Assembly (NCBI GenBank): GCA_031555515.1
Contig: JAVBUG010000158.1
Coordinates: 1,591-65,590, forward strand
Source of the DNA: Microbacterium sp.
GTDB taxonomy: Bacteria > Actinomycetota > Actinomycetes > Actinomycetales > Microbacteriaceae
Reading direction: 5' to 3'
DNA length: 64,000 nucleotides
Both the position numbers and the translations under genes were made by a program. Of this stretch, positions 40,761-42,455 are shown in pieces. Every line of letters starts with the position of its first letter. The first letter of the stretch is position 1. The notes under the pieces are model-generated. The model searched no databases. It worked only from the letters and a program-made list of their open reading frames with translations, and was not told the origin of the DNA.

Positions 40761-42455
40761 TCAGCGCGCCGGCGCCTGGATCTTCTCCAGTGCGCGGGCG
40801 ACGCGCGTCCGGGCCTTGAGCAGCTCGGAGTTGCGTCGCGTGATCTCGGTCAGCTTGCCGCTCATGAGCTGCGGGGCGAGCTCGGCCGCAATACGGGCAG
40901 CCACATACGGCGCGGCGAACGAGGTGCCGCTCCAGACCCCGAAGCCGCCGGCGAAGTCGTCAGGGTCGATCGTCTCGCGCGACAGCAGTCCACGATCGTC
41001 GCGCACGGTCGGCTGGAGCCCGCCGTCGAAGGGCGGGAACGTGCTCATCACGGCGGCGCCGGGGGCATACATCGACACCCACGGCCCGATGTTGGAGAAG
41101 AGCGCGACCGTCCCGTTCGGGTTGAGCGCGCCGACGGCGACATGAGGGGCTGCCGACCTCGGATCGGGCACGACGAAGTCCGGTTCGCGCCACTTCCAGA
41201 GCTTCGCCGGCTCGCGCCAGTCCCACAGCGCGGCCGGAAAGGTCGGTCGGTCGGTCGCGTCGTTTCCGGCCGAGCACACGATGGCGCACCCCCGACGACG
41301 GGCAGCCCGCAGCAGCTCGCTCAGCGTGCGGTCGAAGAGGTCGTCCTCGGGTGTCTCGTGGTAGTACCCCAGCGACAGGCTGATGACATCCACCTGCCGA
41401 CCGCCTTCGCGCTCGGTGCGGGCCATCCACTTCACGAGCGAGCGGACGGCGAGCATGAACGCGCCCTCGAGGACGAAGCCCTCGCTGTCGGCGACGCGGA
41501 CGGCGATGATGTCGGCCTCGGGCGCGACCTGACGGATGATCCCTGCGATGAAGGTGCCGTGCCCGGCCGATCCGTCCAGTGCGCCGTCCAGCGGTCCGGC
41601 CAGGTCTCCGGTCGTCTCGGGGTTCGCGCTGTCTGCGTCGTCGACCCCGATGGAGCGCTTGTCGAGCTGGGGATTGCGCGTGACGATGTCGTCGGGCAGC
41701 CACGGGTGCGTACCGCAGCCGGTGTCGAGCACAGCCACCACGGGGCGGCGCCCCTTCTTCGCCAGGTGCTCGCGCCGCACCGGCTCGGGCCCGAGGTAGT
41801 TGACGACCTGACGGCCCGCACCCTCATCGGCCTCCTCGGCTCCGAACGGATTGGTCCGGGTGCCGTAGGGGTTCGTCCGTGTGCCGTAGGGGTTGGTGCG
41901 CGTGCCGTACGGATTCGTCCGGGTGCCGTAGGGATTGGTGCGCGTGCCGTACGGGTCGACCGTCAGGACGTGGTCGAGGCTCACGCCGCGGAAGTCCTTT
42001 CCGTTGCGCGCGCGAGCGCGCTGCAGCAGGCGCCACGCGTCGATCGGCGGCACCGGCTGGTCGTCCCGATCGGGGCTCGGCTGCGGGAAGATGTCGACCC
42101 GGTAGATGGTCGGCAGGTCGAGATCGCGGCGGCCTCGGCGGGCACGATCGATCGCCTCATCGATGTCGAGATCGCTCTTGTCGAGGTTTCGCAGCCGGAT
42201 CCCCCAGCCGAAGTCCTGCGCCGCCGGGATCAGCGCAGCGAGAACCGGGCGCAGGTCTTCGGTGGTCGTGACCAGCAGGTGATCGGGTGCGTAGGACGTC
42301 GGGTACGCGTGCACGCCCTCCACCGGCTCGCTCGTGGGGTCCAGGGCGGCGCCCTCGCCGAAGGCCGCGTCGTAGCGGTCTCGCCAGGTCCGGCCGCCGC
42401 GGCCGCCGCCGGCGGCTGATCCACGGGCGGGATCTCCAGGGGGAAGGGTGCTCAT
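40761..42455 (-). CDS. Cytoplasmic S8 (subtilase) protease with tandem PYGTRTN repeats
   Basis: Triad VLDTG / GHGTFIAG / SGTSFAAP, oxyanion SAGND; no signal peptide. Confidence 0.9.
   Translation of the reverse strand: MSTLPPGDPARGSAAGGGRGGRTWRDRYDAAFGEGAALDPTSEPVEGVHAYPTSYAPDHLLVTTTEDLRPVLAALIPAAQDFGWGIRLRNLDKSDLDIDEAIDRARRGRRDLDLPTIYRVDIFPQPSPDRDDQPVPPIDAWRLLQRARARNGKDFRGVSLDHVLTVDPYGTRTNPYGTRTNPYGTRTNPYGTRTNPYGTRTNPFGAEEADEGAGRQVVNYLGPEPVRREHLAKKGRRPVVAVLDTGCGTHPWLPDDIVTRNPQLDKRSIGVDDADSANPETTGDLAGPLDGALDGSAGHGTFIAGIIRQVAPEADIIAVRVADSEGFVLEGAFMLAVRSLVKWMARTEREGGRQVDVISLSLGYYHETPEDDLFDRTLSELLRAARRRGCAIVCSAGNDATDRPTFPAALWDWREPAKLWKWREPDFVVPDPRSAAPHVAVGALNPNGTVALFSNIGPWVSMYAPGAAVMSTFPPFDGGLQPTVRDDRGLLSRETIDPDDFAGGFGVWSGTSFAAPYVAARIAAELAPQLMSGKLTEITRRNSELLKARTRVARALEKIQAPAR
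41841..41954 (-). repeat. In-frame 21-bp tandem repeat, (PYGTRTN)x5 + PFG
   Basis: Five units identical in protein, differing at synonymous positions. Confidence 0.95.

Follow-up and report, generated by a model that had tools for sequence, protein, structure and literature searches.

Extracytoplasmic function (ECF) sigma factors of group ECF54 stand beside carboxypeptidase-like, subtilase, and CHAT proteins, in a gene context that holds no canonical anti-sigma factor (for the actinobacterial context, see Huang et al. 2015, as cited in PMC8999054, and Casas-Pastor et al. 2021, PMC7826278). With carboxypeptidase, subtilase, and CHAT-domain proteins conserved around these factors, proteolytic control has been proposed for them (PMC8999054), but it has never been tested experimentally (PMC8999054, PMC7826278). 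In the described pro-subtilases (i.e., pro-subtilisin BPN' and E, pro-Tk-subtilisin, ProN-Tk-SP, and PCSK9), an alpha/beta prodomain is packed on an S8 domain with an intact Asp/His/Ser triad, and the junction follows the last strand of the prodomain with a D-H-V-like motif. The locus that we describe here resembles both. It lies in a stretch of 64,000 nucleotides from Microbacterium sp. (assembly GCA_031555515.1, contig JAVBUG010000158.1, positions 1,591 to 65,590 of the forward strand; hereafter, the window), and its S8 subtilase gene encodes, between a predicted prodomain and the catalytic domain, five exact tandem copies of the heptapeptide PYGTRTN. The S8 peptidase, the tetratricopeptide repeat (TPR)-CHAT fold of the neighboring protein, and the ECF54 context are all of known kinds; the array suggests an undescribed way for the S8 and TPR-CHAT proteins to recognize, or to signal to, each other.

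The linker of the S8 protein (open reading frame at 40761..42455, minus strand, 564 amino acids) reads VD-(PYGTRTN)x5-PFGAEEA in translation. An earlier note, made from the sequence alone, had placed five PYGTRTN units with varying codons at 41841-41954, between prodomain and catalytic domain. Translation and the codon table confirm the units and their codons, and the domain structure described below supports their placement; the span has to be corrected, as the exact units start at 41850 (minus strand) and a start at 41841 adds the PFG of a degenerate sixth unit. This last unit keeps the P-F pair and closes the array, and most orthologous arrays likewise end in a degenerate unit. Across the five exact units, Pro is encoded by CCG or CCC, Thr by ACG, ACC, or ACA, Arg by CGC or CGG, and Asn by AAT or AAC, TAC and GGC being constant. 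Any two units differ at 1-5 of their 21 nucleotides, and all of these differences are synonymous, at the third codon positions of Pro, Thr, Arg, Thr, and Asn. The codons follow an A-B-A-B-B pattern (unit 1 resembling unit 3; unit 2 resembling units 4 and 5), which points to a fairly recent duplication of a two-unit, 42-nucleotide block over an older A/B split, so that slippage is not entirely absent from the history of the array. Tandem Repeats Finder (TRF) describes the array by a period of 21 (4.9 copies, score 129) and by a period of 42 (2.5 copies, 89% matches, score 172). A six-frame search of the assembly, which is 85% complete, found no PYGTRTN peptide elsewhere in the genome that could be a substrate in trans.

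The protein is a peptidase S8 by its Pfam score (PF00082, residues 235-524, E 4.1e-24, 85.8 bits, gathering threshold 21.8) and, as judged from its sequence, by the Asp-His-Ser order and the oxyanion Asn: the 104 sequences compared show no variation at D244 (LDTGC), H299 (GHGT), S512 (GTSFAAP), or N398 (SAGN). Its AlphaFold2 model (predicted local distance difference test, pLDDT, 83; predicted template modeling score, pTM, 0.87) comprises a confident beta-alpha domain at residues 23-165, a segment with pLDDT <50 at 168-215, and a catalytic domain that is confident from about residue 220. Residues 1-170 match neither Inhibitor_I9 nor any other Pfam or NCBIfam family with E <= 0.1. Foldseek aligned the model over about 500 columns with the pro-forms ProN-Tk-SP (3afg_B), pro-Tk-subtilisin, PCSK9, and fervidolysin, and this full-length alignment with uncleaved pro-subtilases indicates that the N-terminal domain is an I9-like prodomain. 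According to the model, the array thus lies in a disordered tether that joins an I9-like prodomain to an intact catalytic domain. By sequence, the nearest solved relatives of the protein are CylA and intracellular subtilisins. None of the four proteins of the operon contains a signal peptide or a hydrophobic or membrane segment (the maximum Kyte-Doolittle 19-residue mean of the S8 protein is 1.31), hence the system is predicted to be cytoplasmic. In two loci (L004, G034; L005, G363), the S8 match was flagged for one in-frame TGA. This stop apparently precedes the true start, since the reading frame that opens after it already encodes the entire protein.

We collected 188 distinct linkers from homologues in the protein collection and from translated loci. 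Exact tandem repeats of 5-8 residues are present in 151 of them, in 2-11 exact copies and with 84 distinct units (e.g., PFTRTN, PFSRTN, PFHSTN, PVGGKTN, PFKAN, PGMWGPN, PYHDSN, PYATGN), the period being 5 in 17 linkers, 6 in 75, 7 in 55, and 8 in 4. The other 37 have mostly imperfect or longer-period repeats, and only a handful have none at all. Every unit of the 151 arrays contains a Pro, followed by F (88), Y (32), or V (19) and preceded by N in 117 of the 151 units (about 20% have H, T, G, or some other residue there), so that the core is usually N-P-F/Y/V; Asp stands before the first unit. Read in this way, the unit is a short linear motif composed of a near-constant core, usually Asn-Pro-aromatic, and of 2-4 lineage-specific residues. 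Copy number differs between close relatives, with five copies in the window versus four in L002/P0004, and differences also among L007-L009. Counted from the conserved His of the prodomain's last strand, 220 distinct junctions follow the pattern H0-[VIL]-[LVM]-[ST]-[VIL]-D-P-hydrophobic-G, with Pro at +6 in 62% and a hydrophobic residue at +7 in 78% of them. In the window, the last prodomain strand, VSLDHVLT, leads into D-P-Y at H+5/+6/+7. This register means that the first unit, often degenerate, is held at a fixed distance from the prodomain, and the array looks like a reiteration of the junction motif of the zymogen.

In a phylum-wide sample, 9 of 401 genomes hold distant members of the family at E <= 1e-30. 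Their arrays stand at the same place without the N-P core (GYGDGV x8, PLFDGH x4, NPDYYG x6), and the near-universal element, with these members included, is one aromatic or hydrophobic residue per unit. In one of them (L100, G565:C1:1941000-1955000), the gene order is S8-ECF-small-CHAT and the junction carries the GYGDGV x8 array, devoid of proline. A search with the prodomain only, against 1.84 billion representatives, returned just 42 matches, so the family as recognized by its prodomain is narrow. A second homologue search, started from a distant member, returned no S8 families with other TPR partners, all of its matches belonging to the same family.

The units of one array are kept identical as peptides while they diverge as DNA. 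Arrays were delimited by nucleotide identity (at least 70% between neighboring units) and not by protein identity, which gave 85 distinct arrays. Pooled over these, the proportion of synonymous differences between units (pS) is 0.47 and that of nonsynonymous differences (pN) is 0.026, i.e., a ratio of 0.055. Silent divergence between the units of one protein is about as large as that between orthologues of different species (synonymous divergence, dS, 0.3-0.5). Three units can be matched one to one as orthologues across 28 close Microbacterium loci, with a CCC codon for Pro kept in unit 2 and a CCG codon in units 1 and 3. In these same loci, all three units have Thr as their fourth residue in some species and Ser in others, and a tree from which the array was left out shows the two states interspersed among near neighbors (L034 versus L037/L043); few arrays are mixed (L079: T,S,S; L052: SQ,SQ,SH). 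The switch from Thr to Ser leaves the flanking unit-specific silent marks intact, and it must therefore result from parallel substitutions or from the copying of patches shorter than about 10 nucleotides. Only selection for identical peptides explains that replacement sites are homogenized but silent sites are not. Selection instead of recent slippage, as first proposed for the window, is thus borne out in its first half, there and across the 85 arrays, while the 42-nucleotide block and the changes in copy number show that some slippage did occur. Identical units under such constraint are the pattern of multi-copy peptide precursors.

The S8 gene does not vary alone. The locus with the closest sigma factor, L063 of Microbacterium trichothecenolyticum, shares with the window 98.5% amino-acid identity in the ECF protein (dS 0.09; nonsynonymous divergence, dN, 0.007) and 97% in the small protein that accompanies it (dS 0.21, dN 0.014), against 41% in the S8 protein (dS 0.95, dN 0.43) and 53% in the TPR-CHAT protein (dS 0.88, dN 0.44). 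At the S8 start codon, nucleotide identity falls from >90% to about 60%, and it is restored near CHAT residue 700; L046 shows the same breakpoints. When the window is compared with L063, L046, and L023, the flanks and the ECF and small genes are 90-99% identical, the S8 and CHAT genes 41-62%. A restriction of the variability to the N-terminal TPR third of the CHAT gene was ruled out, as finer windows place the 3' breakpoint near residue 700. Fast point evolution of the S8 gene was also rejected: close S8 orthologues are under purifying selection (omega, i.e., dN/dS, 0.05-0.09), so that the large jumps are allele replacements, in the form of cassettes within conserved flanks. As these comparisons indicate, the S8 gene and the first ~700 residues of the TPR-CHAT gene are exchanged as one cassette.

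Moreover, several cassettes can reside behind one sigma factor. L020 (650-10170) and L027 (660-10170) are organized as ECF-small-S8a-CHATa-S8b-CHATb, and L021 (3100-10160) has two S8 genes in one operon. In all three, the co-resident S8 proteins carry different units (PFTAN versus PFGRTN or PFGKTN; PFTRTN versus PFGKTN), as pair-specific recognition predicts, the number of independent cases being two or three. The earlier note had suggested that variation between orthologues could encode specificity. Far from lacking the repeat, orthologues vary strongly in unit sequence and number across the family, and the reading of this variation as specificity gains support from the joint exchange of S8 and TPR-CHAT and from the different units of co-resident S8 proteins. 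Further tandem duplicates of S8 (and TPR-CHAT) genes behind a single ECF/small pair were observed in L101 and L102.

The S8 gene is preceded, on the same strand, by the genes of the ECF sigma factor and of the small protein, and followed by the TPR-CHAT gene (Table 1). Most of the 98 loci that we fetched (Microbacteriaceae, Nocardioidaceae, Cellulomonas, Dermatophilaceae, and others) have the same order, ECF-small-S8-CHAT, matches to ECF, small, or CHAT being missing or displaced in only a few. The operon corresponds to the ECF54 gene context without a canonical anti-sigma factor, its sigma factor having itself matched only the generic TIGR02937. For the small protein, library searches gave no family above threshold; sub-threshold CarboxypepD_reg matches, obtained for six of eight small proteins (seven orthologues and that of the window, which gave none), fit the description of the ECF54 context. 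The protein has a helical N-terminus and a beta-rich C-terminus, and its terminal TPxFE[VLI] is conserved across genera. Its C-terminal half weakly resembles the CarboxypepD_reg beta-sandwich, of which the TPxFE[VLI] tail may be the last strand, unless it is a docking tail; the protein is a candidate anti-sigma factor or adaptor.

The downstream neighbor contains a CHAT domain (PF12770, E 2e-22, 80.4 bits), and the profile of its N-terminal part matches TPR proteins of the PDB (E 3.5e-18). In its AlphaFold2 model (pLDDT 88.9), helical TPR-like repeats occupy residues 9-500 and an alpha/beta CHAT domain residues 520-828. The top Foldseek matches are DdvA, Csx29 (Craspase), and separase; the peptide-binding TPR proteins LGN and OGT are also among the matches. 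H703/H707/H710 and C747 are invariant. From its model, it is thus a TPR-CHAT protease of the separase/Csx29/DdvA type, in which a TPR superhelix precedes a CHAT domain that bears the His-Cys dyad. Although the TPR regions of different cassettes share only 25-55% identity, Q89, N126/R127, H165/N166, and D205/R206 are conserved at >90%. These polar residues occupy position 10/11 of four successive odd-numbered (A) helices. Comparable polar ladders bind extended peptides in other TPR and ARM proteins, and by analogy the ladder from Q89 to R206 is a likely peptide-binding groove.

Table 1. Features of the locus, with protein residues, positions in the window, and the basis of each assignment.
Feature	Residues	Positions	Strand	Basis
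TPR-CHAT protease, 828 aa		38246..40732	(-)	Pfam PF12770, TPR profile, AlphaFold2, Foldseek
Whole S8 subtilase gene, 564 aa		40761..42455	(-)	Open reading frame, G+C content at third codon positions (GC3) 0.88
S8 catalytic domain	235-560	40776..41753	(-)	Pfam PF00082, invariant columns
LW[D/K]WREP x2 duplication	~407-426	41180..41237	(-)	TRF, pLDDT, alignment
Degenerate sixth unit PFGAEEA, P-F pair kept, closes array	203-209	41829..41849	(-)	Translation/codon table
Five exact PYGTRTN units	168-202	41850..41954	(-)	Translation, codon table, TRF
I9-like prodomain (predicted)	23-167	41955..42389	(-)	AlphaFold2 model, Foldseek, junction register
Small partner, 155 aa		42529..42996	(-)	Conservation
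ECF sigma factor, start codon uncertain		42986..43603	(-)	TIGR02937 E 1.4e-17, Sigma70_r2

The S8 gene also contains a separate 27-nucleotide tandem duplication (LW[D/K]WREP x2), unrelated to the PYGTRTN array. In the AlphaFold2 model, it lies in a surface loop of the catalytic domain with pLDDT <50 at 413-421, and in the alignment only the window and its closest relatives carry it.

We propose, with a probability of about 35%, that the units are reiterated processing sites of the subtilase, whose products or tails are read by the TPR groove of the partner. The first Pro-hydrophobic pair, at its fixed distance from the last strand of the prodomain, would fill the S2 and S1 subsites as the prodomain tails of pro-subtilisins do, and the enzyme would cut after the aromatic residue (Pro at P2, aromatic at P1), severing the prodomain. 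Pro-Phe/Tyr at P2-P1 is the classical preference of subtilisin (suc-AAPF-pNA). The later, identical units would be equivalent sites, so that maturation would shed several hexa- or heptapeptides (here about five GTRTNPY/F) or, alternatively, leave tails ending in NP-aromatic-COOH. The variable residues of these products or tails would be read by the peptide groove of the co-inherited TPR-CHAT protein, and this pair-specific coupling of two proteases would gate the ECF54-type sigma factor. Cleavage, release, and TPR binding are the parts of this scheme that we infer. The conservation, family-wide, of S361, G363, G397, N398, D399, P404, and P407, which we map to the catalytic cleft, fits the idea that the constant core of the unit is read by the S8 enzyme; on inspection of the alignment, position 405 of the S1 pocket (equated with subtilisin G166) shows no pattern with the aromatic residue of the unit. 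A bolder form of the proposal, which we regard with some doubt, would make the S8 zymogen an enzyme-embedded, multi-copy precursor of an intracellular hexa-/heptapeptide messenger: once activated, the protein would cut itself after each aromatic residue, and the several identical peptides so released would be read by the cognate TPR-CHAT groove, as a private code for each cassette. If this were true, several cassettes could feed one ECF54 sigma factor without cross-talk, by an arbitrium/RRNPP-like peptide code that would be self-excised and wholly intracellular.

Several observations weigh against reiterated processing sites read by the TPR groove. A few members have no array (P0062, P0070, P0078). 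AlphaFold2 docks no unit confidently (pLDDT <50 at 168-215), free hexapeptides would not last long in the cytoplasm, and the genes nearby include none for a dedicated exporter or importer. Matching of repeat on repeat was rejected, copy number (2-13) being unrelated to TPR-CHAT length (814-857 amino acids; rho 0.06). For the Thr/Ser switch, in 20 close Microbacterium loci, no column of the S8 protein outside the array, of the small protein, or of the ECF protein separates the two states cleanly, and the 2 of 745 variable CHAT columns that do are not significant with 15 loci. Unit charge anticorrelates with TPR 151-300 (rho -0.60), as it does with TPR 301-500 (rho -0.52) and with the prodomain (rho -0.44), but the tree gives only 4-6 independent contrasts; many of the "complementary" columns in both proteins follow a deep clade split. 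Finally, Pro could sit at P1' as part of an uncleavable pseudo-substrate, like the LIPY/F motif of intracellular subtilisins (PMC6220982).

This last point leads to two other explanations. If the X-Pro junction is not autoprocessed, the S8 protein could stay a zymogen until the caspase-like CHAT protease, once activated, binds the array by way of its TPR and cleaves it (e.g., after Asn/Asp), the freed S8 enzyme then removing the small partner and releasing the sigma factor. We consider such a cascade possible, without favoring it. Csx29 does cut Csx30, and an ECF-type sigma factor belongs to that system (PMC10028731), autoproteolysis has been proposed for DdvA (PMC11506125), Foldseek groups the neighbor with these two proteases and separase, and the S8 and TPR-CHAT genes are adjacent and swapped as one cassette. 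Pro at P1' blocks subtilisins (PMC6220982). The Asn found before Pro in most units, and the Asp before the first, would fit an Asx-specific protease of clan CD, although the fifth or so of units with another residue at this place and the distant arrays without N-P (GYGDGV) would not. Pro at P1' is a poor site for most caspase-like enzymes too. Moreover, one site would be enough for a cascade, which leaves the keeping of 3-12 identical copies unexplained, and no covariation with CHAT-domain columns was found. Alternatively, the array could regulate the S8 enzyme with no role of the TPR, its units blocking the active site in turn as tethered pseudo-substrates (Pro at P1', aromatic at P2') or acting as a timer, trimmed stepwise by the enzyme itself, which delays full activity. 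Intracellular subtilisins are among its nearest solved relatives by sequence, a cytoplasmic enzyme needs tight control, the first unit keeps its register from the prodomain, and both the cleft and the P-aromatic core are conserved. However, variable residues that are identical within an array, yet different between cassettes and between co-resident paralogues, find no explanation here; the residue before Pro is a polar N or D and not a hydrophobic one as in LIPY/F, and a full I9-like prodomain already serves as inhibitor. We consider a purely S8-intrinsic role rather unlikely.

Other roles seem less likely still. As a passive spacer, the array would be a slippage-prone linker of irrelevant sequence, its identity arising from homogenization of the DNA. 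The varying copy number in close relatives, the recent block duplication in the window, the predicted disorder of the segment, and the few members without an array would all be compatible with this, but units that have diverged at silent sites while staying near-identical in protein, concerted amino-acid switches that spare the flanking silent marks, and the conserved core motif and register are not, so that we strongly disfavor it. We find improbable, to a lesser degree, that the array serves another multivalent role, as a bait for a foreign (phage) protease, as a series of Thr/Ser phosphorylation sites, or in metal binding by His-rich units. In favor of such a role, the polymorphism of cassettes between conserved flanks recalls immunity loci, and many units contain S/T or H; but no residue class is universal except the hydrophobic/aromatic one, the flanking genes (LysR, DUF1304, GATase) are not defense-island-like, searches of defense-system libraries gave only weak PADLOC matches, and purifying selection between close orthologues does not speak of an arms race. 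Nucleation of polymers, also suggested at first, is unlikely with one proline per 5-8 residues and predicted disorder; amyloid or polymer nucleation, a collagen-like helix, and 2A-like NPGP skipping were rejected on sequence grounds.

Compared with the pro-subtilases, the protein of the window is cytoplasmic by prediction, its prodomain is unknown to Pfam, and its gene is paired with that of a TPR-CHAT protein; instead of their single junction site, its family has 2-13 identical short units in a disordered tether of 40-100 residues. A second likeness is to the intracellular subtilisins with a LIPY/F propeptide (B. clausii, Planococcus; PMC6220982), in which a cytoplasmic S8 enzyme is held by a Pro-aromatic motif across its active site. 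These have one motif, with a hydrophobic residue before Pro, in an 18-residue N-terminal extension, and they have no I9 prodomain, repeats, or TPR-CHAT partner. The units [T/S]-N-P-[F/Y/V], the V-D-P-Y junction, the full prodomain, and the repeats set the window protein apart from the single [LVI]-[IFLV]-P-[YFH], and the resemblance may be one of working, by analogy, instead of membership. As regards the ECF54 context, PMC8999054 and PMC7826278 make no mention of a repeat array, of S8 and TPR-CHAT exchange, or of tandem cassettes, and in the literature that we searched we found no junction array, selection signature, exchange of S8 and TPR-CHAT cassettes, or distinct co-resident units. Proteolytic control of ECF54 being merely assumed, the array offers a concrete handle on it, i.e., a short, selected, cassette-specific motif at the point at which inhibitor and subtilase have to be parted. 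If the two proteases do meet through the array, it would represent a new manner of wiring a protease cascade of bacteria to transcription. The cassettes would also provide orthogonal peptide/TPR pairs made by nature, and tandem units that evolve in concert at the protein level, with no homogenization of the DNA, would be a case seldom met in bacteria.

Multi-copy precursors, such as yeast alpha-factor and other Kex2-processed repeats, consist of identical short tandem units under purifying selection that differ by lineage. In the RRNPP and arbitrium systems, peptides of 5-8 residues, a size that matches the units of the array, are read by TPR receptors with pair-wise specificity. By comparison with both, the array has no spacers, secretion signal, or import system; the precursor would be the protease itself, and everything would take place inside the cell. 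RRNPP signaling requires a secreted pro-peptide, the import of oligopeptides, and a TPR receptor fused to an HTH or a phosphatase; the system falls outside it, with no signal peptide or membrane segment in its four proteins and a TPR fused to CHAT. Finally, in Craspase (Csx29/Csx30/ECF-type sigma factor), DdvA-DdvS, and separase-securin/Scc1, the protease is a TPR-CHAT protein that shares this fold and acts on a disordered region in its partner, with a tie to an ECF sigma factor. The system of the window has no CRISPR effector or membrane anchor; its candidate substrate is a protease zymogen, and its candidate site a tandem array.

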